Assembly (NCBI GenBank): GCA_944389835.1
Contig: CALXNU010000003.1
Coordinates: 730-64,729 of the forward strand
Origin: an uncultured Succinivibrionaceae bacterium
GTDB lineage: Bacteria; Pseudomonadota; Gammaproteobacteria; Enterobacterales; Succinivibrionaceae
DNA length: 64,000 nt
Reading direction: 5' to 3'
Shown: positions 8,485-60,215 of the stretch, in pieces
Layout of the letters: every line of letters starts with the position of its first letter
Numbering within the stretch: the first letter of the stretch is position 1
Notes under the pieces: model-generated
What the model saw: the letters and a program-made list of their open reading frames with translations, nothing else
What the model was told of the DNA's origin: nothing
Database searches by the model: none
Program-made: the position numbers and the translations under genes

Positions 8485-8538
8485 AAAAAGCTCCTTCTTC
8501 TAAGATCTTATATTAAAAAACCCACTAAACTTTTAAGC

Positions 8539-9006
8539 TTAGCTCTTTCTTTTTGCGCACATTAAATCTGCACTGCAGACAATCTCACCGTTAACAGTAG
8601 CAACCCCCTTGAAGGCGGCAATACCACGCTTTTCTTTTAAGTATTCAACATCAAGAATAAGCTGATCACCTGGAACTACCGGGCGCTTAAAACGGGCATT
8701 ATCAATTGAGGCAAAATAATAAAGCTCACCTGGCTCTGGCTTTCCAACCATAGTAAAAGCTAAAACGCCGGTGGCCTGTGCCATAGCCTCTAAAATTAAC
8801 ACTCCAGGGAGGACGGGCTTTCCTGGAAAGTGACCTTGGAAGAAAGGCTCATTAAAGGAAACATTCTTCACCGCTTTTAAGGTCTTGTGCTCATCAGTAA
8901 TTTGATAATCTAAAACCATATCGACCATTAAAAATGGATAACGATGCGGTAAAAGAGACATAATCTCCTCAATATCCAAAGTCTTCTTTACGCTTTCTTC
9001 ACTCAT
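8539..9006 (-). CDS. fabZ: 3-hydroxyacyl-ACP dehydratase
   Basis: 155 aa with the hot-dog motif [19 protein letters not shown]. Confidence 0.95.
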
Positions 9007-9013
9007 AAAACAC

Positions 9014-10063
9014 CTATTTGTCTTCTTCCTGAAACTTTGCCACGAGAGTCTTAAGTTCTTTTAACTCCTTTTCCATGGCATTAACCTTATGGTACATATC
9101 ATTAATATGTAAAACCCTTGAGGCTGTAATGCGCCATTCTTTATTAGTCTGTGCCGGAATGCCGGAAGAATAGACGCCAGGCTTGTCTATAGATCTCATC
9201 ACCATACACATTCCTGAAATCGTCACCATATCACAGATCTTAATATGGCCATTAAATACCGAAGTTCCGCCTATAATACAGAATTTGCCAATTGTAACAC
9301 TTCCGGCAAAGACTGTACCACCTGCAATTGCGGTACCGTATCCAATATGCACATTGTGCGCAACCTGACAGAGATTATCAATGATAACATTATCTTCAAT
9401 AATGGTATCATCTAAAGCACCACGATCTATACAAGTGCATGCGCCAATTTCGACAAAGTTACCTACCTTTACGGTGCCAGTTTGCGGGATCTTAAGCCAT
9501 TTACCATTTTCATTAGCATAGCCAAAACCATCGCCACCTATCACAGTGCCAGATTGAATTAGACAATGCTCACCAATCTCAACTCCATGGTAAATTGAAA
9601 CATTAGGATAGATCTTAGTATAAGAGCCGATCTTAGCTTTAGGGCCTATGACGCAGTTTGCGGCAATTTGTACATTAGAGCCAATTACAGCCCCATCCAT
9701 AATCACCACATTCTCACCTAAGGCGACATTCTCACCTAAGGTTGCTGTGGATGCGACCTTGGCACTTTGTGAAACCCCCACTGCAACAGGTGGGGTCGTA
9801 TCTAGAAGTTGCGCGACTTTAGCAAAACCCACATAAGGATCTTTTAAGACTAAAGCTTGAGATTTTACATGTGGGGCATCCTCTTCTTTGACGATAACAG
9901 CCCCTGCTTTTGAGCTTTCTAAGACTTCCTTGTAGCGTGAGTCTGAAAGAAAGCTTATCTCATTTTGAGAAGCAGTTTTTAAATTAGCGACTTTGACAAT
10001 ATCAATCTGCCCATCGCCTATAAGTTTCGCGCCAAGTTTTTGCGCAATTTCTAGAAGTTTCAA
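9014..10063 (-). CDS. lpxD: UDP-3-O-acylglucosamine N-acyltransferase
   Basis: 349 aa with many hexapeptide repeats, positioned between skp and fabZ. Confidence 0.93.
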
Positions 10064-10089
10064 CTAAAGATCCTCCTAAGGGCTAAAAA

Positions 10090-10638
10090 TTACTTAGCCT
10101 TTTTCTCACCATTGGCAATTGAGCCTTCTTTATAGCTCTTCTTGAGGTTCTCTAAAACCTCATCGGTAACATTTAAAGCCTCATTGCTTAAATTTAAAAT
10201 GGCCATACCGTCCATAACAAAATCAAGCTTTTGCTCTTTGGCAACGGCATCAATGGCCTTTTGAATTTCGTTATTGACTCTGCCTTCCATCTCTTGGGCA
10301 CGCTTTCTTTGATCTTCTTGTAAAGCACGAGCCTTTAAGTTGAAATCAGATTGTAACTGAGCAATTTGTCTTTGAGCGTTAGTCAATTGCTCACCTGCAA
10401 GTGTGCCAGATTGAATTTGTTGGGCAAGTTTCTGGCCTTCATTTTCAATGTTCTTAAGCTCTTCTTGACGTGGACCAAATTCTTTGGCCATAGTCTGTTG
10501 CAATTCATGGGCTTGTGGGGCGTCAAAACGGATTAAACGTAAGTTTACAATACCAATGTTAGTATCCGCAGCAAATGCCTGCCCTACCATACCTAAAACT
10601 GCAACTAATGAAAGGGCTAATGCCTGCTTCTTGAACAT
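10090..10638 (-). CDS. skp: Periplasmic chaperone Skp (OmpH)
   Basis: 182 aa with signal peptide ..GQAFAA and a Q/E/K-rich coiled body. It lies downstream of bamA. Confidence 0.88.
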   Translation of the reverse strand: MFKKQALALSLVAVLGMVGQAFAADTNIGIVNLRLIRFDAPQAHELQQTMAKEFGPRQEELKNIENEGQKLAQQIQSGTLAGEQLTNAQRQIAQLQSDFNLKARALQEDQRKRAQEMEGRVNNEIQKAIDAVAKEQKLDFVMDGMAILNLSNEALNVTDEVLENLKKSYKEGSIANGEKKAK

Positions 10639-20878: not shown

Positions 20879-21346
20879 TTAAGCTTGTAAGTTTAAAATA
20901 TGTAAACCTTGAGCTTGGGTACTGCCTTTATCGTTATAGGTCATATTCTTGGTATTTCTATCGCGAATTTTCATCAATACGTCAGTTAAACGCTTGTTTG
21001 CACCCATAAAGTAGCGAATTAACTTACCATTAACCTCATTGCGTCTCTTGCACTCAATAAGCTTAATTTTAATCACTTCAACTTGTGGCAAGTAATCAGC
21101 CTCAAGGCGCTTTTTATCTGGGTGTAGACGAATTTTTTGATCATTACCTGCAATCTTGCCCATAATTTCAGCTTTCTTTGAGGCAAGAGCAGTAATTAAC
21201 TCAGTATCACGGCCTTTTAGAGCATTATGCTCTTTATAAAGGATCTTACCTACCTCGTCTAAAAGCAGGTTTTGATCTTTTAAATACTCAATAAGCGGTC
21301 TTATTTGATTATTAGAAACCGGCTTTTTTTCAAATTTCTTAAGCAT
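20879..21346 (-). CDS. flgN: Flagellar chaperone FlgN family
   Basis: 155 aa. The pattern ..LIECKRRNEVNGKLI..(20)..NMTYNDKGSTQAQG..LQA matches the FlgN C-terminal half. It follows flgP as in Vibrio. Confidence 0.75.
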   Translation of the reverse strand: MLKKFEKKPVSNNQIRPLIEYLKDQNLLLDEVGKILYKEHNALKGRDTELITALASKKAEIMGKIAGNDQKIRLHPDKKRLEADYLPQVEVIKIKLIECKRRNEVNGKLIRYFMGANKRLTDVLMKIRDRNTKNMTYNDKGSTQAQGLHILNLQA

Positions 21347-21358
21347 AATTCTCTCCCC

Positions 21359-21820
21359 TTAAAAAGCTCCACGCATGTCATAGAGATTAAAGACCACTTG
21401 AGTGTCAAGCTCTAACTCTGTGACATATGCATCTGCTAATGGATACTGTCTTATAACTCGAGCACCCTGCACAATCGCATCGATCTTCGTGGTGACCGAG
21501 TCTGATCTTTCTTTAGTATCAATTAGCACTGTTGATCCTTTTATTCTTAAGCCGTAAAGCTGCTCGGCAAGCTCACGATAAGCCTCAATCTTTGAAGCTC
21601 TCATGGCTTGAATTTGTTTTTCAGTCTCAGAAGGACCCTTTTGACGACTTACCACTGCATAGCCTGAAGCACGTAAAATTGGAAATTCATCCGGCTCATT
21701 CACCCCAGTATCGGTGTAATACAAATTCTTACTTAAGGTAGTAGATGTCAAAAAATTGGTTCCACAACCTGCTACGCTTAAAGCTAAAAAAGCAAGCAGC
21801 GCTAAATTTAACTTTCGCAT
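21359..21820 (-). CDS. flgP: Flagellar lipoprotein FlgP (LPP20 family)
   Basis: 153 aa with lipobox LSVAGC. ILRASGYAVVS...IQAMRASKIEAYRELAEQLYG matches the LPP20/FlgP pattern. Confidence 0.8.
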   Translation of the reverse strand: MRKLNLALLAFLALSVAGCGTNFLTSTTLSKNLYYTDTGVNEPDEFPILRASGYAVVSRQKGPSETEKQIQAMRASKIEAYRELAEQLYGLRIKGSTVLIDTKERSDSVTTKIDAIVQGARVIRQYPLADAYVTELELDTQVVFNLYDMRGAF

Positions 21821-21828
21821 GTTCCCTC

Positions 21829-22773
21829 CTAAAGCAAGTTAATATCATCCATTCTTAAATATTGGCTTTGATCTACCACATCGCGAGATAGACGATTGCC
21901 TTGCAAGTAAGATCCCGCCTCATGAATCATTGGATCTTCATCATGAACATTGTCAGAATTGACATTGCCACGGGAGGCAACAGGTCTTACGACGTCACTT
22001 TTTTGAATATCAGAACCCGTTAAATTCTGATTTTTAGGAGCGACAGCAGTTGAAGTGGTGGTGAAATCTTGATATTTACCTTCACGGATCTCTTGTTGTA
22101 CTTTAGCCCGTGAGGCTTTTTCATCTACTTCACTTGGAGTCAAATATGCTTCAATATCCCCAAGAGAGCATTGTTTTTCCTTGGTTCTATAGCAATAAGG
22201 TAAAAGATCATATGGAATAAAACCGGTGGCTGTTGACTGCACAATGTGATTTTCCACATCTACAATTCTTGCAACTAAAACCACACCTTGCTCATTGCGT
22301 GAGATAGTTCCACTTAAGACATTGGAAATTGAGGCTTCTTGTAAGATCTGTCTATAATCACGCGAATAAATGTACTCACCATCTTGAGTGACTTGCATAC
22401 TGCCAGTTAACTTATACTCAAAAACCCCAATGCCGCGAGAGCTTAACTCGTGAGTGAACATTTCAGCCAAAACACGGCCTAAATGTCCTGCATTTTCATA
22501 GGTATCGGTATCGACAAAAGAGGTAATTGCAACGTCTGGCAAGACTAGATCATCAATATCTCTGCCACGTTTTAAATCAAGTAAATGACCTTGTTCTAAA
22601 GCCTTTCTGACATAAAGATGATGGTAAAGCTCATCTGCCATCTCATGAGAGACTTTACTTATTTCCATTCCTTGCAAGTTATAAACTTTGCCGTAAGGGG
22701 CAGGATCTGCCGCACAACCTGCAAGCGTCACCAAACTTGCTAAAATCAAGGTTTTCAGTACATTAATTCTCAT
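21829..22773 (-). CDS. flgO: FlgO family outer-membrane/flagellar lipoprotein
   Basis: 314 aa with lipobox LVTLAGC. The core VAITSFVDTD..GRVLAEMFTHELSSRGIGVFEYKLTG..LSGTISRNEQGVVLVARIVDVENHIV is FlgO-like. It has a C-terminal low-complexity extension. Confidence 0.8.
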   Translation of the reverse strand: MRINVLKTLILASLVTLAGCAADPAPYGKVYNLQGMEISKVSHEMADELYHHLYVRKALEQGHLLDLKRGRDIDDLVLPDVAITSFVDTDTYENAGHLGRVLAEMFTHELSSRGIGVFEYKLTGSMQVTQDGEYIYSRDYRQILQEASISNVLSGTISRNEQGVVLVARIVDVENHIVQSTATGFIPYDLLPYCYRTKEKQCSLGDIEAYLTPSEVDEKASRAKVQQEIREGKYQDFTTTSTAVAPKNQNLTGSDIQKSDVVRPVASRGNVNSDNVHDEDPMIHEAGSYLQGNRLSRDVVDQSQYLRMDDINLL

Positions 22774-22859
22774 CCTGAGCCTCTTTTGTTCTTATAATTT
22801 AGAAAAGAGCATAAAATTTTGGCACCTTTCTACTTTATTTCGCATATTGTCACGATTTT

Positions 22860-22875
22860 TGCAAGGTATGTGCCA
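22860..22875 (-). promoter_or_regulatory. Sigma54 promoter for flgO-flgP-flgN
   Basis: The minus strand reads cCTGGCACataccTTGCAaaa, a perfect TGGCAC-N5-TTGCA, about 85 nt upstream of the flgO ATG. Confidence 0.7.
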
Positions 22876-22897
22876 GGTTAAGCGTGGAGATGTAATT

Positions 22898-24079
22898 ATG
22901 TTCACTTTTTCGTCTTTTTTTAAACGGACTTTGTTTCTTCTAAGTTTAGGATTACTCATTCCTCTTTCAAGTGAGGCTGCCTGGTATGAGGCTTTTGGCC
23001 GCGCTGCGGTTTTGGACAATGATGTTGATGGGGCAAGAAAAGCTGCCGTCAATGATGCTGTGCGCAATACCTTACTTGAGGCAGGGGCTAATATTAAAGT
23101 CTATCAAAACTATGAAAACGGCACTTTATCTTCAGAGTCCATGGAGATTAACTCTGACTACCCAGTTAAAAAAGTAACCGTCCTTGAAGAGCAACGCACT
23201 TTAAATGCTGTACAAGTTCGGGTGCGCGTTTATATTGATGATGAAAATATCTCCCGTTGCACTATAGGAAAAGTTAAAAAATCAGTCCTACCGGTTACTT
23301 TCCGCTTTGAAGATAATTTAACCTATGGTGGTGCTCAAGGCCTTGAGAGTATGCCAATTGAATTATCCCATATGATTTTTGATCGTATCGGATCATCTGC
23401 GGCCATTCTCCTGCAACCTGAGCGTGAACTTAACTTCTTTCGCGACAACAACTCCTCTTTATCCTATGATGAAATAAGAAGTCTTGATGCCCTCTCACGC
23501 CAAGAAAATGTGCAATATGTTATTACAGGTACCATCCGCTCTCTTGCCGCCTCCGATGCAGGACCATCTCCTATTGATAAGCTTTTTTACTCCAAAACAA
23601 GACGCATTGATTTTGCAGTCTCCGTCTATGATGCCATGTCAGGTAGAGTAGTCTTAAGACGCCACTATGAGGGTGAAAGTGATTGGGACTACAAACAAGG
23701 CGATTATGTTGATATTAGATCTGAGCGCTTCTTATCCTCATCCTATGGTCAAAGATTACTTGAGCTTGCCTCCTTTGCCGCAGAAGATATTGTAACTTCC
23801 ATGCAATGCTTGGCACCAAGTGCCAGAGTTATTGATACTCGTGGCGATAGCATCTTAATTAGTGTTGGACAAAGCTCTGGAGTTAAAAAAGGCCAAGAGT
23901 TTTCTTTAACTCACTTCTCAGAGTATCCAGATCGTCAAGGCAAAATTTATCAAAGTGCTCAACCTTCAGGTGCTTTATATAAGGTAACTGATGTTTATTC
24001 ACACTCTGCGCGTTTAATGCCATCTGGTGGTAATCACTTATTAAATGTTTCAGCCGATGACATTGTGACCTTGCAATAG
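22898..24079 (+). CDS. flgT: Flagellar assembly protein FlgT (H-ring)
   Basis: Signal peptide then SEAAWYEAFGRAAVLDNDVDGARKAAVNDAVRNTLLEAG (FlgT N domain), and a C-terminal ..ARVIDTRGDSILISVGQSSGVKKGQEF.. domain. I chose the ATG at 22898 (GGAGA SD 7 nt upstream) over the track TTG at 22847, which would overlap the divergent promoter. Confidence 0.8.
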   Translation: MFTFSSFFKRTLFLLSLGLLIPLSSEAAWYEAFGRAAVLDNDVDGARKAAVNDAVRNTLLEAGANIKVYQNYENGTLSSESMEINSDYPVKKVTVLEEQRTLNAVQVRVRVYIDDENISRCTIGKVKKSVLPVTFRFEDNLTYGGAQGLESMPIELSHMIFDRIGSSAAILLQPERELNFFRDNNSSLSYDEIRSLDALSRQENVQYVITGTIRSLAASDAGPSPIDKLFYSKTRRIDFAVSVYDAMSGRVVLRRHYEGESDWDYKQGDYVDIRSERFLSSSYGQRLLELASFAAEDIVTSMQCLAPSARVIDTRGDSILISVGQSSGVKKGQEFSLTHFSEYPDRQGKIYQSAQPSGALYKVTDVYSHSARLMPSGGNHLLNVSADDIVTLQ

Positions 24080-24363: not shown

Positions 24364-24987
24364 ATGAGACTTACTATGGACAAATCTAAAATTAAAAAAT
24401 CTTCAAAAGAAAAAGAACCAAATTATAAGTTTCTCTATGAGATCATAAATGATGACTGGCTTGCCAATATTGATTTTACTGAAAAACCTCAATACATCAA
24501 ATTGCCTAAGACGTCCATTAAACACTACATAAGTCGCACAGTAGCTTTAAATATTCACACCAGCAATTTTGGTGGAGATTGGCATTTTTTCGACACCTTT
24601 TTTTGGCCTGGCTATGAAAATGATTACGAAAAAATTAAAGATAAACTAAATTTTCTTTGCGGTGAGGGTGAAGAGTGCAATACAAATTCTATTTTAGGAA
24701 AAAAGGGAATTCTAGAAAGATCTGAGCTTGTAAAAAGTCAAGGTTTAACCTTTGAAGGGTCGAAGGTATACGTTGCCACGTATGCACGTGCTATTGCTGA
24801 TATGGTTTTGTTTTTTACTAAGCAAGGTATCCCAAGAAATATTACCCTTGATGAGTGGACACCAAGACAAAAAGAGCAAAAGATAATTTTAGAATATTTA
24901 AATATAGCCCTTAAAAGCGACAAAATTGACGCGGCTCAAAAAGCAAGGATCAAAGAATGGATCAAAACTCAAAAACCGATTTCTTAA
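24364..24987 (+). CDS. Hypothetical protein (ORFan, no recognisable family)
   Basis: 207-aa ORF with the SD-like AGGGGA immediately upstream. It has a K-rich N-terminus and W/F/Y-rich middle (GGDWHFFDTFFWPGYENDYE). I recognise no motif. Confidence 0.5.
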   Translation: MRLTMDKSKIKKSSKEKEPNYKFLYEIINDDWLANIDFTEKPQYIKLPKTSIKHYISRTVALNIHTSNFGGDWHFFDTFFWPGYENDYEKIKDKLNFLCGEGEECNTNSILGKKGILERSELVKSQGLTFEGSKVYVATYARAIADMVLFFTKQGIPRNITLDEWTPRQKEQKIILEYLNIALKSDKIDAAQKARIKEWIKTQKPIS

Positions 24988-25111: not shown

Positions 25112-26869
25112 TTGCAAGACTTTAAAAATTTGCTCAACAAACTGCCAATTGCTGACTCATCTTTTTTTAATCTGCGCATGAAAAATGCCATCTATGTTGA
25201 CAAGACAAAATTTGTCTACAATCTTGCAATAAACGATCAACCTCGTGTTCTTACTCGCCCGCGCCGTTTTGGCAAAAGCACTTTACTCTCTACCCTAAAA
25301 GAGCTTTTTTTACATGGTGTGAAACCTTTTATAGACCCCGATACAGGCAAACTTCACGAATCGTGTTTTAAAGGCCTTGCTATTGAAAATTTGTGGACTG
25401 ATCCTGAAGAATATCTCGTACTACAGCTTGATTTTCGTGATCTTAATGAACAATGCTCAAGCATAAAAGACTTTGAGCTTAACCTTCTGGATGAGCTTGA
25501 TGCTTTTGCCCAAGAACATCATCTTACTTTATGTAAAGAGGCACTAAGTCTTAATTCTAAATTCCAAGATCTTCTTTTAAAACTTCCAAAGCACAAGCTT
25601 GTGCTACTTATTGATGAGTATGATGCCCCATTTCTAGCCTGTCTAAATAATCAAGATAAGCTACAACAAACAACACTTTGGATGCAAAATTTTTATAGCG
25701 TCATTAAAAGTTCTCAAGAAAAATTTCGTTGTATTTTTGCAGTTGGGATTACACCACTGCAAAGTCTAAAGCTTAGTACTGCGGTAAGTAACTTCTCTGA
25801 CATTTCTTTTGACCACAATTTTGCCACCTGTTGCGGTTTCACACACCAAGAACTTAAGCAATATTTTAAGAACCATTTGCTTTTCGCTACAGCAAAAAAC
25901 TCTCACTGTACTCTAGATACTGTAACCTCTGAGCAAATTGAGCATTTTCTAGATGATCTAGCACTTTGGTATGACGGCTTTTGTTTTGATCAAAAACAAA
26001 GCAACAAAGTTTTTTCTACCTGGTCAGTTTTACGCTTTTTCAGTGATGAAGATGCGCTACTGCAACCATATTGGATGGCAGAAAGAAGCGTGTTAATGCC
26101 CTCTCTACTTAAAAATACTATTAAGCGCCTAAATTTACCTAAACTTTGGCCTACACTTGCATCAGGTGAGTTTAAATTAAGCTTTGCTGAATTTATGGAA
26201 GCAGGTTTATTTTCTCCACAAGAATCAAATCATTATGCTCTTTTTTACCAGACGGGATACTTAACTCTAACTCGTCCTTTTTTAAACGGCGGAAAAATCT
26301 CTTTAAGGCTTACTAATCAAGAAACCCGGATCGCTTTTGCTACCTTTTTAGCTGAGCGTTTGTACGCAACTTCTGACAACAATACCCCGCAACTTATGGG
26401 TCCTGATTATGCAGCAAAAGCACAACAGGTACTTGCAAGCTTAGATGCAAACAAGATTAAGCAACTTTTTAGCAGTCTTTTTGCAACTCTTCCATATCAG
26501 CACTATCCTGTCGTCAATGAGAGTATAGTTTCAGGGTTATTGGCTTTTTATTTAATAGGAGCAGGTTTAGCACCACACTGTGAGGTGAGTGAAAACTTGG
26601 GAAGAGCAGATGCTGAAGTTAACTTGCCTCAAAGCAATATTACTTTGGTTTTTGAGTACAAATACGAACAAAGCGCAGATCCTGCCATCTTAGATACCAA
26701 ACTTCAGGAGGCGATAGCTAAGATAAAGAGCCGTGATTATGGCAATCACGCAGGCAATTTAGCGAAAATTGCTCGCTTTGCCTTAGTGTTTTGCGGCAAT
26801 GAGAAAGTACGAAACATCGCGCGTCTTTCTTTAGTTGACGTGCTAAACAAAAATATCGTCAAAAATTAA
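25112..26869 (+). CDS. AAA-ATPase-like plus PD-(D/E)xK (PDDEXK_9-type) family protein, paralog 1
   Basis: 585 aa with a TTG start after the AGGGGA SD. The N-terminal RPRRFGKSTLLSTLKELF P-loop block and hhhhDEYD Walker B (LLIDEYD) are present. The C-terminal GRADAEVNL...LVFEYKY gives the D..ExK nuclease motif. Confidence 0.8.
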   Translation: MQDFKNLLNKLPIADSSFFNLRMKNAIYVDKTKFVYNLAINDQPRVLTRPRRFGKSTLLSTLKELFLHGVKPFIDPDTGKLHESCFKGLAIENLWTDPEEYLVLQLDFRDLNEQCSSIKDFELNLLDELDAFAQEHHLTLCKEALSLNSKFQDLLLKLPKHKLVLLIDEYDAPFLACLNNQDKLQQTTLWMQNFYSVIKSSQEKFRCIFAVGITPLQSLKLSTAVSNFSDISFDHNFATCCGFTHQELKQYFKNHLLFATAKNSHCTLDTVTSEQIEHFLDDLALWYDGFCFDQKQSNKVFSTWSVLRFFSDEDALLQPYWMAERSVLMPSLLKNTIKRLNLPKLWPTLASGEFKLSFAEFMEAGLFSPQESNHYALFYQTGYLTLTRPFLNGGKISLRLTNQETRIAFATFLAERLYATSDNNTPQLMGPDYAAKAQQVLASLDANKIKQLFSSLFATLPYQHYPVVNESIVSGLLAFYLIGAGLAPHCEVSENLGRADAEVNLPQSNITLVFEYKYEQSADPAILDTKLQEAIAKIKSRDYGNHAGNLAKIARFALVFCGNEKVRNIARLSLVDVLNKNIVKN

Positions 26870-27033
26870 AGATCTTTTCTTAAAGCATAAGCTTTAAAAT
26901 CGCGTCTTTTAGCCGAAAATAAAAGGTAAGATAAAGATCTTTTCCGCAATCCGTGCATGTTAAGTATCTTTTTTGTCCAAGCTTAAGCTACAATTAGCTT
27001 GGGTTGTGGTGTTTTTGGCAGAAAAAAATAAAA

Positions 27034-30000
27034 ATGAGTGAGATTAAGCTTCAAACTACTAATGATATTAAGTTAGATGAAAAGCGTCAGCAAGAGGCTC
27101 AAAAGAATGCCCCTGAAAGTGCACGCTTCAATCGTCATGCTACCTCATCTTTAATTGAGGTTCTCTCCTCGCAACAAGGCATGGTCAATGAATCCTTAAA
27201 TCGCACTTTAGGCAAGCTCAACACTGCCTTAGATCATCTTTTAAAAGGACAAAGTGATAACTTAGCCCAAGGTGAGGACGCTCAAAGCTTACAAAAGCTC
27301 TCTTATGATGTCATCTCTCGTGATGTTAAATTACAAGAGCGTGTAGCCCAAGCTTTATCATCGCCAAATCGCCTCATTAGATCACGTGACGCCCAAGACT
27401 CACTTAAAAACTCTTTTGATAATTTGCCAAAAGCCATCAAAGAAGACTCAACAGGCCCTCTTCTTTCCCGTGCCGTGCTTGAAAGTTTAGTCACTCTTGC
27501 AGATAAAGATGCCATTGGTGCAGGACTTGAGCGTGATTTGAGCTTAAAGAAAGTCTATATTAGTGACTCCCGCCCGCAAGGTCGTGCCACTTTAGCCTCA
27601 GGGCGAATTTTAAATGCATCTTTGGCCTATATTGAAAGCAATCAACCTAAAGTTTTAGCAACTTTGCAAGAGTCAAGTGAGGAAAATACTTCCCAGAAAG
27701 CTTCTACTCAAAACACGCAAAATCCTCAAGATGAAGATTTAAACCTTGAGCTTAAGCGCTCTAAGATGAGTACTGCGCAAGTTATGACGGAGTATTTAAA
27801 AAAGGCACTTGAGGAATTCCCTGAGGATTCAACCTATCTTGATATCTTCAAGAAAAATGCCCAAGGAATAGATGGCAAAGACAATCGCAATTCTCAAAGA
27901 ATTCGCGAAGTCATTTACAATGCCTCACAAATGGCTAAAACGCGCAATCTCTACCCAGGCGCTCCTGATCCTACAGTTGAAACTGCCGAGGAGTCTTTTG
28001 CGGTAAATGATGAGAATACTTTTAATAAAAATGCCTTAAATTTAAGTGCCGATCCTGATGCGCGCTCTTATATTGATGATCCTAAGGATAAAACTAATGT
28101 TGAAGGCTCACGCATGAGCTTAGCTGAGCTTTCAGCACGCGCTGCCAAACTTCAAATGCAATTTACGCGCGAAAGACAGCGCATGGTTCAAGAAGGACAA
28201 TTACCCGATCCTGCCACCATGCCCCCTATTGATGAGAGTATCCCGCAAGGTGATGGCTCACGCAATTATCATCAATCAACATTGCGCATTCCAAGAAGCT
28301 CTGTGGCAGCTTTAGCTCAAAATCCTTTAGTTCAGGCCTCCATGCCACCTAAAGCGCAAAATGATGTGACTCAATCCTTAGAGATTGAAGCCTCCAAACA
28401 AGAGCTTTTAAAAACCCAGGATGAGCTTTTAAAACTTAAAGCTGAGCTTGCCAAAGTTCAGGCTGAAGCCTTGCAATCTGCTAAAGAGACGGTAAATGCT
28501 CAACTTCAAACTCAAAAAGAGCTTAAAGCTCAAGCTGAGGCTTGGTATCAGCGCATTCAAGAGGCAGGTGCTATGGCCAAAAGCACTATTGATGCGCTAA
28601 AACAAGCGGCCAACTCAGCACTTAAAGTGACCGAGCACATCCCTCAAGAGACAAAAGCATCCCAAACTCTTGAGCCTTTCGTGCAAGCTCAAGTGTCAGA
28701 CGATCTTGCACTTAAAGAAAACCTAAGCAGCCCCTCTTTAAAGCTTCAAGCTAAAGAAGAGGCTCAAGTTCAGACAAGAGATCCTAAGCTTTACTCACAA
28801 GTAAATCTAAATCAAACTCAAGAGCCTTTAAAAAATCCTCAAGAAGGCTCTCAAGAGATTGTTTTTGAGCAAAAGCCACAAAGTGCTTACCTTAACTTAC
28901 AAGCTCAAAGTGACAGTGAAAATTTTGAGCTTAAAGCCCCTCAAGAGAGCATTACTCAAGAGCTTTTAGATAAGAGTCAGCAACAAAGTACCGTCTTTAC
29001 TCAAGATGGGGACGTATCTTATCCACAAGAGACTAATCTTGATCTTAAAGCTCCAACAGATAAGGCACAATTTGCCCCACAAAGTGCTACTTTAAATGAC
29101 AGTGCAGTAACTGAAAAAGCCCCCAAGGCTCCTGCAAATCCTACGGCACCTTTTGATGATCTTAATTTTGACAGCAGTGAAAACTCACTTGAAGAGCGTT
29201 TATATCGCTATGTAGGTCAAGCTAAGATCTCGGATACTGCAGATGAAATCAAAATTGATACTGCTTTAAAGCTTGATAGCAAAGAGCTTAATGAAAATAA
29301 GCCTGCCTTAGAGCAAGATGGTATAAAGCAAGTTTCAAACAAAGAGCTTACTTTAAGCTCTCAAGATGAGGCTTTAAAAGATGAATTTGAGGTTATAAAA
29401 GCTGATGAAACAAAGGCCTCAGACCAAGAAGCAAATATAGCTTATAAGAGTCAACGTGAGATTCAATCAAGCTTAGAGGAGCAAAAAGAGGATTTAAGCT
29501 TTAAAAACTTACAAGATAAAGCTCAAAGCTTTAAACAAAAGCTTGAGGAACCAAGACCTGTAAGTTTAGAAAAGAATGCAGTGGCAAGTGAAGCTAAAGA
29601 AATTGTAAAGCCTGAAGTTTCTGATGCTAAACCTCAAGCCCCTGCTCAAACTCAAGAGAGCAAAGCTCAAGTTGAAAATCAGCCTAAACAGCCTGAGACT
29701 TCAGCTCAAGAGCAAAAGCTTTACAGTGAAACTTTAAAAGAGCAAAAACTTAAAGCCCAAGAGATAGCAGAAAGTGCCAAGAAAGCATCTCAAGAGGCCT
29801 CAAAACAAGCCCTTGCAGATGAGGCTCAAGTAAAAGAGGAGAGTCTTCAAAATAAGGCTTATGATAAAGCTTTATTGCAAGCTCAAGAGGAAGCACAAAG
29901 TGTGGCTTTAAATCAGGCTCAAGTGCAAGATGAGCTTGTAAAGACCCAAGAGATACAAGTTCAAGATAAGCTCCAAACTCAAACTAAGCTTGAAAATAAA

Positions 30001-30774
30001 GAAGAGCGCGTAGAGTTTAAAGAACAGCAAGCGCAAAAAGCCCAAGAGCTTGAAACTATTCAAACTCAAAATACTAAAGATAAGGTAAGTGAGAGTGAGG
30101 CGCAAAAAAATTCTGCAACCACAACTGCTCAAAGTACTCAAGAGGAAAGCTTAGAGAATGATCATGTAGAGTTTAAGATCCCAAATCTAAACCCAGATCT
30201 TAATCTTTCGGTTGCAAATCCTAATGACACCCAAGATGAAAGTGCCAATGAGGAGTTAAATGTAAGCGATGAGCAAGCACATTTAATGGCCTCTTTAGCT
30301 CAAGCCTCAAAGCAAAATCAAGAATTAGTAAGTCTTGATAACAATGAGGATACTTTTGAGTTAAATCGCCCCACTAATCCTCATTTAAATGTCAACTTAG
30401 ACATTGATGATCCGCTTGAAAGTGGTAGTGCTGAAGAGTTTTCTAAGCTTTATCAAAATATTGCGCAAAAACAAAGTGCAAGCGAAGTAGATGCAGAAGA
30501 ACTTCAACAAAATCCTGCACCAAAGGAGAGTAAAGGGTCTGAAATTAAGATCAATCCTCAAGACGTGGCAAGCTTAATGAGCGTAAAACCTAGTGACGAT
30601 CTTGAAGATGATGATACCCTACAAGGGATTAAGACCCCACTTGCCGATGAGAGCACTTTAGAAGAGGAGATTAAAGCGCCAACTGGTCAGGCTGCCCAAG
30701 TAAGCGATGAAACCTTAAGTGAAAATGAGGTTAAACCAGGCTTCTTCTCAAGGCTTGCCTCTTTTTTTCGCTAA
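27034..30774 (+). CDS. Giant acidic Q/E/K/A-rich low-complexity protein with C-terminal amphipathic helix
   Basis: The ORF is open from 27004 (TTG); the first ATG at 27034 gives MSEIKLQ... (1246 aa). About 230 N-terminal residues have ordinary composition, followed by about 1000 aa of Q/E/K/A/L/S-rich sequence with coiled-coil-like runs (ELLKTQDELLKLKAELAKVQAEALQ). It ends ..KPGFFSRLASFFR. Confidence 0.75.
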   Translation: MSEIKLQTTNDIKLDEKRQQEAQKNAPESARFNRHATSSLIEVLSSQQGMVNESLNRTLGKLNTALDHLLKGQSDNLAQGEDAQSLQKLSYDVISRDVKLQERVAQALSSPNRLIRSRDAQDSLKNSFDNLPKAIKEDSTGPLLSRAVLESLVTLADKDAIGAGLERDLSLKKVYISDSRPQGRATLASGRILNASLAYIESNQPKVLATLQESSEENTSQKASTQNTQNPQDEDLNLELKRSKMSTAQVMTEYLKKALEEFPEDSTYLDIFKKNAQGIDGKDNRNSQRIREVIYNASQMAKTRNLYPGAPDPTVETAEESFAVNDENTFNKNALNLSADPDARSYIDDPKDKTNVEGSRMSLAELSARAAKLQMQFTRERQRMVQEGQLPDPATMPPIDESIPQGDGSRNYHQSTLRIPRSSVAALAQNPLVQASMPPKAQNDVTQSLEIEASKQELLKTQDELLKLKAELAKVQAEALQSAKETVNAQLQTQKELKAQAEAWYQRIQEAGAMAKSTIDALKQAANSALKVTEHIPQETKASQTLEPFVQAQVSDDLALKENLSSPSLKLQAKEEAQVQTRDPKLYSQVNLNQTQEPLKNPQEGSQEIVFEQKPQSAYLNLQAQSDSENFELKAPQESITQELLDKSQQQSTVFTQDGDVSYPQETNLDLKAPTDKAQFAPQSATLNDSAVTEKAPKAPANPTAPFDDLNFDSSENSLEERLYRYVGQAKISDTADEIKIDTALKLDSKELNENKPALEQDGIKQVSNKELTLSSQDEALKDEFEVIKADETKASDQEANIAYKSQREIQSSLEEQKEDLSFKNLQDKAQSFKQKLEEPRPVSLEKNAVASEAKEIVKPEVSDAKPQAPAQTQESKAQVENQPKQPETSAQEQKLYSETLKEQKLKAQEIAESAKKASQEASKQALADEAQVKEESLQNKAYDKALLQAQEEAQSVALNQAQVQDELVKTQEIQVQDKLQTQTKLENKEERVEFKEQQAQKAQELETIQTQNTKDKVSESEAQKNSATTTAQSTQEESLENDHVEFKIPNLNPDLNLSVANPNDTQDESANEELNVSDEQAHLMASLAQASKQNQELVSLDNNEDTFELNRPTNPHLNVNLDIDDPLESGSAEEFSKLYQNIAQKQSASEVDAEELQQNPAPKESKGSEIKINPQDVASLMSVKPSDDLEDDDTLQGIKTPLADESTLEEEIKAPTGQAAQVSDETLSENEVKPGFFSRLASFFR
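30762..30768 (+). other. T7 run forming U_UUU_UUU at the last codons of the giant ORF (candidate -1 frameshift site or homopolymer indel site)
   Basis: The codons are GCC TCT TTT TTT CGC TAA. The downstream Flg_hook ORF is in the -1 frame, which is open from 30735. Confidence 0.3.
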
Positions 30775-30800
30775 GTAACGAAAGCCACCCTCAAAGTGGG

Positions 30801-31628
30801 GTGGTGGCACCCTCTACCCCAAATAATGGGCCGATTAAGCCCAATCTTACGGCCTTTTCTGATCTTCTAAGCTCCTTAAATAAAGTGGCCGTAGAAGTTG
30901 AAGATCCGTATTTAAAAGAAAAGGCCCAAAGTTTAATTAATGAGTTAAAAAATCCGGTTAATAATCTTCACACTGTAAATCAATACTTAAGCTTTGTCAC
31001 AGGACCTCTCTCCCCTTCCTCACCATTGGCTATTGCTTTGCATCAATGGGCTTTTATGCTCCTTTGCATTAGATTTGAGCAATTAGGCAAGGAAATAGGA
31101 AGCTTTCTTAAAAATAAAATCAAAGATCCTGAAAGTTTAAGATCAGAGGTTATAAGCTCCAAAAAAGTAAGAGTCGATCCTAAAACTACTACAAGTTTAC
31201 TTGATAGCACGATTGCCCAAGTCGATAGGCTCAAAGAAGAATGTCAGGCTATTGGCAACCTCCCTATCCCAAGGTTTATTCCCATGCCTCCGATGTACGA
31301 TGAAGGACATGACGGGGCTTTGTTTTTAAAGCGCGATGAGGATGATCCAAATAAAACGTGGCATTTGCAATTTTGCTTTGATTTAAAAGATTTGGGCCCC
31401 TTGGAAATTCAAGCGCAAGCTCAATTTCCAAGTATAAAATTGCGCTTTACCTCACCATCTAAGGAGGTTTTAGATCTAACTCAGGCCATGTTGCCACTTT
31501 TAAAAGAGCGTTTACAAGAAATTGGAGTTACCACGCGCTTATCGCTATTAAGACAAGCGCCTATTACCTTTAAAGAAAATCTAAAGGGTCCAATTAGAAA
31601 AGAATCAGGCTTAGATCTTGAGGTGTAA
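30801..31628 (+). CDS. FliK-like protein with C-terminal Flg_hook/T3S4-type domain
   Basis: 275 aa. The C-terminal WHLQFCFDLKDLGPLEIQAQAQFPSIKLRFTSPSKEVLDLTQAMLPLLKERLQEIGV fits the FliK C-terminal pattern (L.L.P.ELG.v.v......l.f......l...l..L...L...G). The start is uncertain: GTG with no clear SD, and the first Met is residue 86. Confidence 0.65.
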   Translation: MVAPSTPNNGPIKPNLTAFSDLLSSLNKVAVEVEDPYLKEKAQSLINELKNPVNNLHTVNQYLSFVTGPLSPSSPLAIALHQWAFMLLCIRFEQLGKEIGSFLKNKIKDPESLRSEVISSKKVRVDPKTTTSLLDSTIAQVDRLKEECQAIGNLPIPRFIPMPPMYDEGHDGALFLKRDEDDPNKTWHLQFCFDLKDLGPLEIQAQAQFPSIKLRFTSPSKEVLDLTQAMLPLLKERLQEIGVTTRLSLLRQAPITFKENLKGPIRKESGLDLEV

Positions 31629-31630
31629 TT

Positions 31631-31957
31631 ATGGATCGTCGCTATAAAAATGTTACTGAGGCTGTCGCTTTATCCTATGATGAAGACAATCCTAAAAGCG
31701 CCCCTTTTGTGGCGGCTAAAGGTGATTTTGAAAGAGCTCAGGCAATTGTGGAGATGGCAGAGGAATTAGGTCTTTACATTCATCAAGATGAAAAGCTTTT
31801 GCGGGAGCTTAAATCTTTAAAAGAAGGTGAGGAAGTGCCAAGCCAGCTTTTTGGAGTGATTGCCACAATTTTAGCTTTCAGCTATATCCTGCAAGGTAAA
31901 ACCCCAAAAACTTGGAGAAGGCGCGATGGCACTCGCGCCATTAACCTTAAAGCCTAA
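31631..31957 (+). CDS. Stand-alone FlhB/YscU C-terminal (post-cleavage) domain protein
   Basis: 108 aa. AVALSYDEDNPKSAPFVAAKGDFERAQAIVEMAEELGLYIHQDEKLLRELK..EVPSQLFGVIATILAFSY aligns with the FlhB segment following NPTH. A GAGGTG SD lies upstream, and the start is 2 nt after the preceding stop. Confidence 0.8.
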   Translation: MDRRYKNVTEAVALSYDEDNPKSAPFVAAKGDFERAQAIVEMAEELGLYIHQDEKLLRELKSLKEGEEVPSQLFGVIATILAFSYILQGKTPKTWRRRDGTRAINLKA

Positions 31958-34881
31958 AGCCCCAACAACATGCGCTCAAAATCGTTAACGGAATTTGAGT
32001 TATTTGAAGGTGCAGGAGCTGGTGCTGGTGCAGGAGCTGGACGTAAATCCTCACCTGTACCTTGGGACTCATAAGTATTTTCCTGAGTACTAGTTGGCGC
32101 AAAGCCTGCACTGTTATATGGCAGATCTAAGTTATAGCACGGGCGGATCCTCGCAATCTTATCCTCACGCACCGGGAATAAGGACAAGCCCTCTTCCTGA
32201 CATTTATCCTGCACAATCTCACCTTGTTTATCAAAGTTTACAAACTTAATGCCTTCTGGGCGGGTTAATTCCAAAGAATTTACCCCACGCTCTTTAAGAT
32301 AGGCTGAATAAACACGCAGAGGACCTGATGATCCATAAAGCCCTGTAGGTTTGAAGACATCAAAGCCCACCCAGGTGGTCACTAATTCATCTGAGTCCAT
32401 ACCAATGGCCCAAGTGTCACGACTGTCATTGGTAGTACCAGTCTTTGAGGCAATCTTTACTCCTGGGAATGAAGCTTGTAAGCGCCTTCCGGTACCACTG
32501 TGTGTAACCTCAGTCATCGCATATAAGGTAAGATAGGTATCTTTAGGATCTAAAGTTCTCTCCCCTGCCATAGCTGTCCTGTCATAGACAATCTCACCGT
32601 TTTTTACCACCGTGCGCAAAGTAGTTAAGTTTTGATAGACACCATCAGTTGCCAAGGAAGCATACATGGCATTTAACTCATATGGCGTACACTCTAAAGT
32701 ACCTAAAAGCAAGGAAGGATATAGTGGAATATCCCTGTCAACACCCACCTTTTTAAAGGTCTCCACGACATTAGCAAGGCCTACACTCATACCAATTCTC
32801 ACGGTTGGTACATTCAAAGAGCGCGCCATGGCACTTAATACCGTAATTGGACCTCTAAATTTCTTATCATCATTTTTAGGCGACCAAAGTTTACCATCTG
32901 CTAAACGTACTGTAACTGCTTTATCTTCGACAATTGATCCTAAATGATAGCCACGATTGAAAGCTGTTAAATAGACAAAGGGCTTTGCCAAAGAGCCAAT
33001 TTGACGGCGACCTTCAATCACGCGATTAAAGCCATCGTATTTTGGCGTGCGACTTCCCACCACTGCTGAAACTTCAGCCGTGCGCCAGGAGCTTACTAAC
33101 ATCGCAGCCTCTAAACCTTCTAACTTACGGCTTTTTTCAATGGCATCAAGCTCGGTGGCCACAGCCTTTTCAGCGGCTGCTTGTGATTGAGGATCTAAGC
33201 TTGTAAAGATGCGAATGCCATTACCTGAGAGGAAATCAGGTCCAAAGCGTGAGGAGATCTCATACTTTAAAAGTCCCATGAAAGCAGGCGTCTTACTATA
33301 GTTCATAGAGCCTCGTGGGATCACATTTAAAGGACGGGCTGCATATTGTGAAAATTCAGCTTCACTTATATGCCCTTGATTTCTTAGAACTCCTAAAACC
33401 GTATTGCGCCGCTCTAGCGCATTTTCAGGATGACGCCACGGATCATAATAAGAAGGTCCTTTAATTAAACCTACTAAAAGGGCCATCTGATCTAAAGATA
33501 ATTCAGACACCGGCACGCCAAAATAGAAGTAGGAGGCCAAACCAAAGCCATAAATTCCCGCATTGCCATTTTGCCCCAAGTAAATTTCATTCATATAGGC
33601 TTCTAAGATCTGATCTTTGGTGTAGCGATGATCCATGATCATGGCCATGATGAGCTCTTTGAACTTGCGGGTATAGCTTTTTTCGGAGGTTAAAAAGTAG
33701 TTTTTCACCAATTGTTGGGTGATGGTACTGCCACCTTCCACAACGCGCCCTGCCATAAAATTGCGCACAAAGGCGCGGGCGATGGCAAAGACATTAATAC
33801 CTATGTGAGAGTAGAATCTTCTATCTTCAATCTCAAGTAAAGTGGTAATTAAACTTTGCGGCACTTCATCTAAGGTAATAAAAATTCTATCTTCCTTAGG
33901 ATCGATACGATTGATTCTATCTAAAAGCACTGGATCCATGCGCACATAGGAAAGCTCTTCCATGGTGTCAGCATTAATTAAGCGTGAGATACGATTTCCA
34001 TCAAACTCAACTAATAAAGATAATCTATCTTCCTCACCATCAGGGAAGCTAAAAGGTCTTTTAATCACCACAATGCGTGAGGTTTTTTCATTTAACGCAT
34101 ACTCACCAGGTCTTTTTGGCGTTGAAGTTTTGCGATATTTTAAAAGCTCAAGCTCATAGCACATTTGCTTAAAAGAAAGCCTCTGCTCTGGATAAAGCTC
34201 CAAAGGCCTTGAGTAGACTACCGCAGGTAATACCCACTTATCATCCACCTCAAACTCTTCCATCACCACCGCATCAAAATAGATAAAAAAGCCGCCTAGG
34301 ATAATAACTCCGACGATGGTAAGTTTTAGGGCAAACACGGAAAGCTTATGGCGAAGTCTTGCAAACCAACTTTTAGGGGGCTCTTTTTTGGGCTCTTTTT
34401 TATCTAAACTCTCTTGTAGATCTTGTGGGTCTTGTAAGGAACTTTCCTTATCAAAATCTTTCTTTAAGCCTTTCTCTTCTGCCTCTTCCTGAGAACTATC
34501 CCTCTGATTTAAGAATTCTTGAGCTTGACTTTCTTGTGGAGTAGAAATCTTATCTAGCTCTTGTGGTGCTTTACTTTCTTGAGTACTTAAGCTTTCCTCT
34601 TTGCCCTCTTTGTCTTTACTCTTTTTATCTTGTAAAGACTTAGCCTGTGACAAAGTAGCCCCTAAATCTTCCTTTTCTTCCTGACGCTCTTTTAAAATAT
34701 CTTGGGAAAAAGAGGCCATCGCCTCATCTGAAGCTTTTCCTTCATCCTTTCTTTTACTTTCTTTAACTTTTTTATTTTTTAAATTAAAAGGCACATCGTC
34801 ATCATCTTTTGGCGAAAAAGCGAGGATCTCTAATGGATCATTGCCCAAATTTAAATCATCATCGGAACGTTTGTTGGTCAT
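31954..34881 (-). CDS. mrcB: Penicillin-binding protein 1B (bifunctional transglycosylase/transpeptidase) with extended tails
   Basis: 975 aa. It has a UB2H-like segment after the TM helix (RPGEYALNEKTSRIVVIKRPFSFPDGEE), the GT51 motif RFYSHIGIN..EGGSTITQQLVKN, and a transpeptidase region with SLAKP and KTGTT. The cytoplasmic N-tail is about 180 aa and a (PA)5-6 tract lies near the C-terminus. Confidence 0.88.
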   Translation of the reverse strand: MTNKRSDDDLNLGNDPLEILAFSPKDDDDVPFNLKNKKVKESKRKDEGKASDEAMASFSQDILKERQEEKEDLGATLSQAKSLQDKKSKDKEGKEESLSTQESKAPQELDKISTPQESQAQEFLNQRDSSQEEAEEKGLKKDFDKESSLQDPQDLQESLDKKEPKKEPPKSWFARLRHKLSVFALKLTIVGVIILGGFFIYFDAVVMEEFEVDDKWVLPAVVYSRPLELYPEQRLSFKQMCYELELLKYRKTSTPKRPGEYALNEKTSRIVVIKRPFSFPDGEEDRLSLLVEFDGNRISRLINADTMEELSYVRMDPVLLDRINRIDPKEDRIFITLDEVPQSLITTLLEIEDRRFYSHIGINVFAIARAFVRNFMAGRVVEGGSTITQQLVKNYFLTSEKSYTRKFKELIMAMIMDHRYTKDQILEAYMNEIYLGQNGNAGIYGFGLASYFYFGVPVSELSLDQMALLVGLIKGPSYYDPWRHPENALERRNTVLGVLRNQGHISEAEFSQYAARPLNVIPRGSMNYSKTPAFMGLLKYEISSRFGPDFLSGNGIRIFTSLDPQSQAAAEKAVATELDAIEKSRKLEGLEAAMLVSSWRTAEVSAVVGSRTPKYDGFNRVIEGRRQIGSLAKPFVYLTAFNRGYHLGSIVEDKAVTVRLADGKLWSPKNDDKKFRGPITVLSAMARSLNVPTVRIGMSVGLANVVETFKKVGVDRDIPLYPSLLLGTLECTPYELNAMYASLATDGVYQNLTTLRTVVKNGEIVYDRTAMAGERTLDPKDTYLTLYAMTEVTHSGTGRRLQASFPGVKIASKTGTTNDSRDTWAIGMDSDELVTTWVGFDVFKPTGLYGSSGPLRVYSAYLKERGVNSLELTRPEGIKFVNFDKQGEIVQDKCQEEGLSLFPVREDKIARIRPCYNLDLPYNSAGFAPTSTQENTYESQGTGEDLRPAPAPAPAPAPSNNSNSVNDFERMLLGL
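32008..32040 (-). repeat. (CCW GCW)n hexanucleotide repeat encoding PAPAPAPAPAP in mrcB
   Basis: The plus strand reads aggtgcaggagctggtgctggtgcaggagctgg. On the minus strand it translates as RPAPAPAPAPAPS. Confidence 0.9.
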
Positions 34882-50233: not shown

Positions 50234-50270
50234 GCACTTACCATCTTTTGTTGGTAAGTGCTTATTTTTC
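50234..50270 (+). terminator. Intrinsic terminator of galM
   Basis: A 10-bp stem GCACTTACCA/TGGTAAGTGC is followed by TTATTTTTC. It overlaps the stop of the convergent gene. Confidence 0.8.
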
Positions 50271-58892: not shown

Positions 58893-58943
58893 GCTCAAAA
58901 CTAATCTTAACCATTAGCTAAATCTCAATTAACCAACACAGCT

Positions 58944-58969
58944 AAAGCCGCCTCTGCGGCTTTTATTTC
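58944..58969 (+). terminator. Intrinsic terminator of the dehydrogenase gene
   Basis: AAAGCCGC-CTCT-GCGGCTTT is followed by TATTTC. Confidence 0.75.
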
Positions 58970-59105
58970 AACCTTTCATCACATATTTTTCAAAGGCACA
59001 TAATGCTAAAAGCACTCAAGTAGAAGATCTAATCAAAACAATCTAACGCGTGTTATACTAAATCTTTAAAAATTAAGTCTTTAGTTTAAAAGTTAAATTT
59101 TTTGT

Positions 59106-59750: not shown

Positions 59751-59999
59751 ATCTTTGCCTAAATAAAATAATTTTTCATAATCTTAAATAAGAATGTTAA
59801 ATAATTCTATTTTTTTACGCTTGATTTTGCGTCTTTGGAGTAGCTTTTCATACAACTTAAACTAAAATTAATTGTATAATCAACAGATTTCACTAAAAGT
59901 GTGCAATTTACGGGCACTTTTGCATTAAAAAACCTTGTCTATACAGAAAATTTACAAGAAATTTTGTAACATTTTAGCGATCTAAGTCACAATTCTGTA

Positions 60000-60015
60000 A
60001 TGTAAACGTTACCAC
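60000..60015. promoter_or_regulatory. GalR/GalS-type operator upstream of mglB
   Basis: ATGTAAACGTTACCAC has the core TGTAAACGTTACCA, one mismatch to TGNAANCGNTTNCA. A CRP-like half-good site AGCGA-N6-TCACA (59976-59991) lies just upstream. Confidence 0.5.
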
Positions 60016-60215
60016 AAAAGCGTAATTTTTGATTTTTAAACCGCTCTAGAATGCATATTAGCGCAAACATACAGATTACATTTATTAGTATTTAGATTTA
60101 TATAAGTTAAAAATATATATTATTAAAATGTGCGTGGTGTCTAATTTTATTTTGCCAAGAGTCTTTACTATAACACCATAAAATCAAATTTAAGATCTGT
60201 TGGAGGATCCACATA

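Follow-up and report, generated by a model that had tools for sequence, protein, structure and literature searches.

A giant fliK2-flhX locus of the Succinivibrionaceae with a conserved frame break at a T7 run

Known fliK2-flhX pairs and the locus in the window

As a flagellar component, FlhX was named in 2005-2006, and it is routinely listed among the export components; in Nitratiruptor an flhX-fliK pair lies outside the main flagellar cluster (PMC9321776). Leal-Morales et al. described PP_4328-PP_4329 of Pseudomonas putida as fliK2-flhX, a FliA-dependent operon of uncharacterised function, and traced flhX to Pallen 2005 and to work on HP1575 of Helicobacter pylori (bioRxiv 10.1101/2021.08.29.457346). 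H. pylori FlhX (HP1575) can replace a deleted C-terminal cleavage product of FlhB (FlhB-CC), for which it is a known "spare part" (Wand et al. 2006, as cited in PMC3040844 and in the P. putida preprint). Here we describe a fliK2-flhX locus in a 64,000-nt stretch of an uncultured Succinivibrionaceae bacterium (assembly GCA_944389835.1, contig CALXNU010000003.1, positions 730 to 64,729), referred to as the window, whose closest named relative is Candidatus Avisuccinivibrio pullicola.

The locus contains three open reading frames (ORFs) on the + strand, at 27034..30774, 30801..31628, and 31631..31957, separated by gaps of 26 nt and 2 nt. A sequence-only reading of this DNA had described three co-directional genes with these gaps, and the ORF coordinates agree with it. 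It had also taken the arrangement to be one without an assignment, which does not hold in view of the P. putida operon, the Nitratiruptor pair, and the naming of FlhX cited above. The fliK2-flhX pairing is already known and is functionally uncharacterised. New, as judged from sequence, are a giant FliK2 family of the Succinivibrionaceae with its own N-terminal domain and a conserved U7 break that predicts two isoforms. The best explanation overall, which we regard as moderately probable, is a two-gene fliK2-flhX operon in which the giant fliK2 is recoded and FlhX would act in trans.

As in P. putida KT2440, a protein with the FliK C-terminal domain (T3S4) is followed on the same strand, in the window after the 2-nt gap, by a protein that corresponds to the FlhB C-domain (FlhB-C) only. 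A sigma-28-type promoter lies upstream in both cases, experimental in P. putida and predicted in the window. Unlike the P. putida pair, that of the window adjoins mrcB and dksA and is outside flagellar clusters, and its kinship to PP_4328 is judged from the published description only. The canonical FliKs compared here have 375-627 aa, whereas the FliK-like protein of the window is 3-5 times longer and possesses a family-specific N-terminal domain and a conserved -1 break; its gene is also not in the fliJ-fliK-fliL position of the gammaproteobacterial pattern found, e.g., in Escherichia coli. The 108-aa FlhX resembles H. pylori FlhX and the NCBIfam family TIGR00789 (flhB_rel) in being a free-standing FlhB-CC homologue of ~100 aa. 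It differs from H. pylori FlhX in its strict linkage to a FliK-like gene, and it scores 57.7 bits against TIGR00789, below the curated cut-off of 117.35. In Alteromonas sp. A079 (locus L053 of our set, 7536-10291), an 815-aa Flg_hook protein overlaps flhX by 4 nt, and this pair adjoins the cytochrome c maturation genes ccmA-F and recA, outside flagellar clusters. Presumably ccm genes also lie beside fliK2-flhX of P. putida.

The giant protein and the T3S4 protein as halves of one gene

A scan with an FlhX profile, using one genome per species, gave 52 loci from Succinivibrio, Succinatimonas, Anaerobiospirillum, Ruminobacter, Succinimonas, and Alteromonas. All of the more than 50 Succinivibrionaceae loci, and also Alteromonas, have a FliK-like gene directly beside flhX; in the former the FliK-like gene always precedes flhX, and a convergent mrcB usually follows. 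In ~35 genome loci a single ORF of 946-2227 aa matched both the giant and the 275-aa protein of the window, and the single-ORF form was also present in those metagenome loci, ~38 of 43, that had the junction motif. When the N-terminal 262 aa of the giant protein were searched against 1.84 billion representative proteins, only 65 matches were obtained. About 50 of these carried the N-terminal domain and T3S4 in one chain of 837-2847 aa, three terminated in ...ASFF[RH], and the remaining nonfused ones were fragments. The conceptual fusion of the window sequences is a stop-free protein of 1531 aa that is colinear with the unsplit homologues. These comparisons show that a single giant FliK-family gene encodes, as its two halves, the giant protein and the 275-aa T3S4 protein. 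The giant acidic protein, which had been counted as a separate third member of the locus, is the N-terminal ~80% of the same gene and is fused to the rest in nearly all relatives.

Members of the family share the order N-terminal domain of ~245 aa, acidic spacer, motif G[FL][FL]x[RK][LI]AS[FLI]F, linker, helical region, T3S4, and C-terminal tail. The 5′ (zero-frame) part of fliK2 (27034..30774, +) encodes 1246 aa from the ATG at 27034, a start that is kept in homologues, or 1256 aa from a TTG at 27004; it ends in ...GFFSRLASFFR, and its homology covers the N-terminal ~80% of single-ORF proteins in relatives. Its product is rich in Q, A, and S, has no Cys, and contains 17% D+E. It has no match in Pfam or NCBIfam. 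With an isoelectric point (pI) of 4.67, it is acidic, in line with the previous description of a disordered acidic protein of ~1250 aa; the disorder does not extend throughout, as the first ~245 aa (27034..27770, +) form a conserved domain, recognised in alignments, with an invariant hydrophobic-N-x-x-A-T motif at aa 32-37. In the 65 representatives this domain is always N-terminal and always part of a giant protein. Relatives of it were found neither in Pfam nor in the PDB, and it is not detectable in the FliK-like protein of Alteromonas. A single-sequence AlphaFold2 (AF2) model is all-helical and unreliable (pLDDT 42). The following spacer (27771..30738, +) is variable, acidic (pI 4.56), and rich in Q, E, K, and A, contains no tandem repeats, and ranges from ~600 to 2200 aa across species. 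It leads to the FxxxL-type motif G-F-F-S-R-L-A-S-F-F (30739..30768, +), which is internal in unsplit homologues; the corresponding family motif occurs in nearly all members ~300 aa ahead of the C-terminus.

The 3′ part of fliK2 (30768..31628, +) lies in the -1 frame and comprises the linker, a helical region (..YLSFVTGPLSPSS..LHQWAFMLLCIRFEQLGK..; family pattern ..NWLNFVTGPLSPSS..LHQWAFxLLxIRFxQLGK..), and T3S4; the ORF delimited by gene callers (30801..31628) starts with GTG. The 275-aa product had been read as ending in a T3S4 segment, and it indeed matches Flg_hook (PF02120) at residues 181-244 (31341..31532, +) with 38.5 bits against a gathering cut-off of 29.8 (E 1.1e-9). In a profile comparison (hhalign) this domain aligned to residues 265-318 of E. 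coli FliK (E 1e-3), and a sequence search of the PDB with the T3S4 half gave no match. The AF2 model of the 275-aa protein has a low mean pLDDT of 48 (53-74 in the T3S4 part); its top two Foldseek matches, 2rrl (FliK C-terminal domain) and 5cuk (PscP T3S4), are supportive, not decisive. For the pair L057 and L059, the ratio of nonsynonymous to synonymous substitution rates (dN/dS) was 0.18 in the T3S4 half, 0.19 in the N-terminal domain, 0.28 in the spacer, and 0.11 in flhX, and purifying selection on the T3S4 half is shown by these sequence comparisons. Conservation extends to the C-terminal tail of the family (..G-x-x-[LF]-x-[VL]-x-[IAV]; last ~8 residues ..DG[ST]x[LF]S[VL][DN][IA]). Since the terminal residues of Salmonella FliK are proposed destabilisers of FlhB-CC (PMC13344023), the conservation of the FliK2 tail may be relevant.

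Four further FliK-like genes of our set are fragmented in other ways. In an Anaerobiospirillum sp. metagenome-assembled genome (L030, 8031-8036), an in-frame TAA in the spacer separates 693 aa from 583 aa in the same frame; it could be a real nonsense codon, a readthrough site, or an error, and it is different in kind from the break described below. L004 (352-3960) shows frame changes in the low-complexity spacer, L060 (3132-3666) a scaffold gap of Ns, and L048 (3135-8100) a gap without explanation. In these last three the likely cause is faulty assembly of repetitive or low-complexity DNA. The splits in L060, L004, and L030 were left out of the count of split genes, being breaks of a different kind.

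Frame break at the T7 run and its possible readings

A two-ORF form of the gene was found in five species, i.e., in the window, L005, A. pullicola (L001/L022), L057, and L059. They form a monophyletic and deep clade, with C-terminal domains that are 47-58% identical except in the pair L057/L059 (85%) and with genomic GC contents of 0.40-0.56. A metagenome scan for further members gave only unsplit relatives at ≤45% identity, and the representative protein library added none to those already known. In all five species the break has the invariant sequence TCT TTT TTT C[GA]N TAA. In the window the T7 run lies at 30762..30768 (+) and reads T_TTT_TTT in the zero-frame register, a perfect fit to the slippery heptamer X_XXY_YYZ and the proposed site of -1 frameshifting or transcriptional slippage. 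The zero-frame stop TAA (30772..30774, +) follows one codon past the run, at the same position and with the same codon in five of five species. The T3S4 part is in the -1 frame in each of them, and this frame is open for 25-73 nt upstream of the stop, through the T7 run (in the window from 30735 to 31628). In all five, a -1 shift on T7, which amounts to one extra U in the mRNA, would yield products of 1261-1531 aa that contain no stops. The fused junction SFF|SLSNES.. is colinear with SFFSGRS.. and SIFSKK.. of unsplit homologues, and the conceptual junction peptide of the window is predicted to be ..LASFFSLSNESHPQSGVVAPSTPNNGPIK. These alignments show that the gene changes to the -1 frame right after an invariant T_TTT_TTT in one monophyletic clade of five species.

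Unsplit homologues encode the same residues with freely varying codons. Given the codon usage of the individual genomes, retention of NNT TTT TTT for Ser-Phe-Phe in four independent lineages has a probability of ~2e-4 by chance. Two further independent metagenome assemblies of the species have exactly the junction of the window, and the same T7 is present across the five species in at least seven independent assemblies. A decaying pseudogene or a homopolymer assembly error is therefore highly improbable and can be set aside: a homopolymer is the commonest place for real indels as well as for sequencing errors, but the same T7 recurs in many assemblies, both halves are intact (dN/dS 0.18-0.28), and the clade is deep.

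The break may be bypassed by -1 ribosomal frameshifting on U_UUU_UUU or by insertion of one U by RNA polymerase. Such recoding would yield mostly a T3S4-less protein of 1246 aa and a minority of the full-length protein of 1531 aa. Recoding is favoured because it alone explains the nucleotide conservation of T7, the open frame overlap, and the lack of a common start codon, and we lean slightly towards a bypass of the break with a major T3S4-less and a minor full-length product. No start codon is common to the five split species. Three of them (L005, L001, and the window) have a GTG 11 codons past the run, where it falls within the 3′ arm of a hairpin, and the GTG of the window (30801) lacks a usably spaced Shine-Dalgarno sequence. 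In the -1 frame of L057 and L059, an ATG, GTG, or TTG first occurs 36-37 codons downstream, within a conserved helix. The hairpin is GC-rich and stable and begins 14-17 nt past the T7 run in five of five species. In the window (CCACCC(T)-loop-GGGGTGG, 30785..30804, +) it contains this mechanical GTG "start." Its stem has one compensatory exchange (A-U to C-G) and two wobble changes. The synonymous divergence of the linker between L057 and L059 is reduced. A terminator-like hairpin upstream, beside the T run, was considered as a stimulator of slippage and rejected, as visual comparison with the other four species showed no conservation of it.

Several observations weigh against recoding. The spacing of 14-17 nt between the run and the hairpin exceeds the 5-9 nt typical of stimulators of -1 frameshifting, covariation support for the hairpin amounts to one pair in five sequences, and the codon-position pattern of the 37-codon linker, compared between L057 and L059, does not discriminate between the frames. 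In E. coli, shifting is much weaker on U_UUU_UUU than on A_AAA_AAG (PMC5009743), and selection against transcriptional slippage is usually evident only at runs of ~9 (PMC1088944). The efficiency of recoding at T7 is probably low because the heptamer is weak, the run is below the usual slippage length, and the hairpin lies farther off than classical stimulators. Termination-reinitiation is possible in the three GTG-bearing species.

This last process would account for the 275-aa protein if the gene had undergone true fission, so that the ruler-like and T3S4 parts are now independent proteins in the split clade. The 275-aa protein, started at the hairpin GTG, would then be non-secreted and act like HpaC on FlhX or FlhB-C, the giant protein having a separate role. 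In favour of fission, a conserved GTG follows a gap of 26 nt in the window, L005, and L001, the masking of a start codon by a hairpin is a classic coupling device, U7 is weak as a recoding site, and T3S4-only proteins such as HpaC of Xanthomonas exist (PMC3040844). The arrangement resembles Xanthomonas HpaC/HrcU-C, in which the target of a T3S4 protein is an FlhB-family C-domain able to work in trans (PMC3040844); HpaC is short and non-secreted, and the comparison matters only in the case of a 275-aa ORF that is translated on its own. Fission is nevertheless doubtful in our judgement, because the five species share no start codon, the GTG at 30801 lacks a usable Shine-Dalgarno sequence, and the first starts in L057 and L059 are likewise without one and would truncate the conserved helix. 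It also gives no reason why synonymous sites of TCT TTT TTT are retained across GC contents of 0.40-0.56, nor why the -1 frame is open back past the upstream stop.

Recoding has precedents in type III secretion system (T3SS) genes, namely, the YopN-TyeA fusion, spa13/spa32, and mxiE, and slippage in Shigella spa13 controls the expression of the needle-length ruler Spa32 (PMC5009743). Like YopN-TyeA of Yersinia and spa13/spa32 of Shigella, fliK2 is a gene that consists of one ORF or two depending on the lineage; in those T3SS genes, recoding joins the two in part of the product. It differs from them in the proteins, lineages, and sites concerned, which in those cases involve a +1 shift or A/T runs of 8-9. 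In literature searches, recoding was not encountered for any gene of the FliK family.

FlhX, export switching, and genomic context

The flhX gene (31631..31957, +) encodes a free-standing FlhB-CC-like protein of 108 aa, identified by Pfam/NCBIfam and PDB matches and by alignment to E. coli FlhB-C, and has its own Shine-Dalgarno sequence, GAGG. The sequence-only reading had assigned this product to the FlhB sub-domain after the NPTH autocleavage site, and both profile and structure searches bear this out. FlhX matches only positions 262-334 of the 335 positions of Bac_export_2 (PF01312), i.e., the last 73 (E 1.7e-13), and the best PDB match of its profile is chain B of 3b1s, a post-cleavage FlhB-C fragment (E 1.2e-16); EscU, YscU, and SpaS were also matched. 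No transmembrane domain is present, the four-helix membrane domain of FlhB being absent, and the NPTH motif is lacking as well (N-V-T-E is aligned in the window, and the position is variable across the family). In a protein search with the FlhX profile, which gave 3016 matches, the 120 listed were all near-identical FlhX proteins of Succinatimonas/Succinivibrio. As FlhX has no membrane domain, a full-length FlhB must be encoded elsewhere in the genome if the flagellum is functional. Within the window, the pair had been described as lying away from the export-gate genes, which was confirmed: none of the 47 other ORFs of at least 120 aa scanned, four ORFs at 57930-62836 being excluded from the scan, encodes flhA, fliPQR, or a full-length flhB.

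Chevance et al. (2026) described the cleaved FlhB C-domain as the site where early substrates dock, with a pocket formed by A286, P287, A341, and L344. The domain keeps the export gate in the early mode until FlhB-CC is ejected and degraded at hook completion in a FliK-dependent manner, after which the export of early substrates is blocked (PMC13344023). The gate recognition motif of early substrates binds to this FlhB-CC pocket (PMC8983047). The equivalent positions of FlhX are A24-P25, A78, and L81 in the window and [AST]24-P25, [AS]78, and [LI]81 in the family. Sequence alignment thus shows flhX to encode only the FlhB sub-domain past the NPTH site with the docking-pocket residues retained. 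The locus resembles Salmonella FliK/FlhB-C, YscP/YscU, Spa32/Spa40, and PscP/PscU in combining a long, largely unstructured and putatively secreted protein that ends in T3S4 with a partner of the FlhB/SctU C-fold that carries the pocket residues, here as deduced from the genes alone. It is unlike the FliK/FlhB-C switch in that FlhX lies outside the membrane gate protein and cannot autocleave, and in that the "ruler" is very long and not conserved in length. PMC3040844 states that HrcU-C is functional in trans and, citing Wand 2006, that the H. pylori homologue is so likewise.

Because FlhB-CC docks early substrates and is ejected by FliK, and FlhX is a late, T3S4-linked copy of it, FlhX is an obvious candidate for a protein that re-sets or modulates the gate. 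The most reasonable role for fliK2-flhX, by analogy and from sequence, would be a trans-acting one on the flagellar specificity switch. In the most economical model, FlhX would be made after the switch and, past the sigma-28 stage, could re-occupy in trans the site left by the ejected FlhB-CC and restore docking for early-type substrates, above all for the giant FliK2, which would be exported through the gate. FliK2 carries FxxxL-type motifs and a conserved hydrophobic-N-x-x-A sequence at aa 32-36. The T3S4 domain and the conserved C-terminal tail of full-length FliK2 might then remove FlhX. This removal would, in the split clade, be confined to the frameshifted minority, and the frameshift frequency would set the length of the episode. 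This re-docking model is wholly inferential, which tells against it, and we put it forward as tentative. Still more speculative is the idea that two isoforms, ruler-only and ruler plus T3S4, together with FlhX constitute a resettable second specificity switch with the frameshift frequency as a stochastic timer.

Another possibility is that fliK2 is no accessory, second ruler but the organism's only fliK and an ordinary hook-length gene beside flhX, as in Nitratiruptor, which would fit either mechanism of expression. The Nitratiruptor pair outside the main cluster indicates that an flhX-linked fliK can be the sole one (PMC9321776), no second Flg_hook ORF was found in any locus within flanks of ±10 kb, and the 270-aa product of A. 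pullicola is called FliK by PGAP. We nevertheless consider this unlikely. The flhX-linked gene of P. putida is additional to a canonical fliK, the Alteromonas pair lies beside ccm genes and outside flagellar clusters, and close relatives differ widely in the length of the protein (840 to 2850 aa); by our own estimate from Salmonella, where 405 aa correspond to 55 nm, such proteins would specify hooks of hundreds of nm with no fixed length. A sigma-28-type (late) promoter is also unsuited to a hook-stage gene. The precedent in Pseudomonas, a promoter of the late type, and the lack of a length constraint in the family (840-2850 aa) make a second, canonical fliK in the genome likely by analogy.

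The promoter candidate, a sigma-28 (FliA)-like motif TAAA-N13-GCCGAAAA at 26895..26919 (+), is located 115 nt upstream of the ATG and was assigned by consensus match only. It is the single match to TAAA-N12-16-GCCGAWAA in the 64-kb window. GCCGA[TC]A boxes also occur upstream of the homologous gene in L005, L001, L006, L012, and L017, and none was found upstream in Succinivibrio or Succinatimonas loci. Its 13-nt spacer and the absence of the motif upstream of many homologues count against a late promoter.

The upstream neighbour of fliK2 is an AAA-ATPase/PD-(D/E)XK gene, and mrcB, dksA, and gluQ follow downstream of flhX. The remaining ORFs of the scan matched housekeeping functions or flgT, flgO, flgP, and flgN, and no Rfam family was found in the locus. 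At 20879-24079, flgN, an flgP-like LPP20 gene, and flgO (-) together with the divergent flgT (+) form an isolated group adjoining rpsB-tsf-pyrH-frr, beside which neither flgM nor flgA was seen. The giant gene begins 2955 nt past the end of flgT, in accordance with the proximity to flgT/flgOPN that had been pointed out, but the link is incidental: this neighbourhood is unique to the window and was found in none of ~55 related loci, and a functional tie between fliK2 and flgT/flgOPN was rejected. Between flgT and fliK2 lie a 207-aa ORF (24364-24987, +) without a Pfam or NCBIfam match and the AAA-ATPase_like (PF09820) ORF at 25112-26869 (+), which also matches PDDEXK_9 of the PD-(D/E)XK type and has a paralogue at 50262-51968 (-). 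A related, split copy is present near gluQ in A. pullicola (L001, 17081-18790), and the variable positions among relatives suggest that the gene is mobile or often relocated. The convergent mrcB gene for PBP1b (31954-34881, -) overlaps the flhX stop with its own by 4 nt, a convergence that is kept in most of the family. Its product carries an N-terminal extension of ~180 aa in which lysine and acidic residues abound, and it ends in a PAPAPAPAP tail; the homologues of relatives are 783-1289 aa long.

FlhX and FliK2 are products of widespread flagellar genes without an established role, and the Succinivibrionaceae provide ~50 lineages in which the pair can be compared, as well as an N-terminal domain that is new and conserved. 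In the output of gene callers the halves of the split gene appear as unrelated, one as a "hypothetical protein" and the other as "FliK." The split clade is a natural experiment in which a conserved, putative frameshift site parts T3S4 from the ruler. Should recoding be confirmed there, it would be without precedent among FliK-family genes and would offer a handle on the T3S4-less and T3S4-bearing forms.

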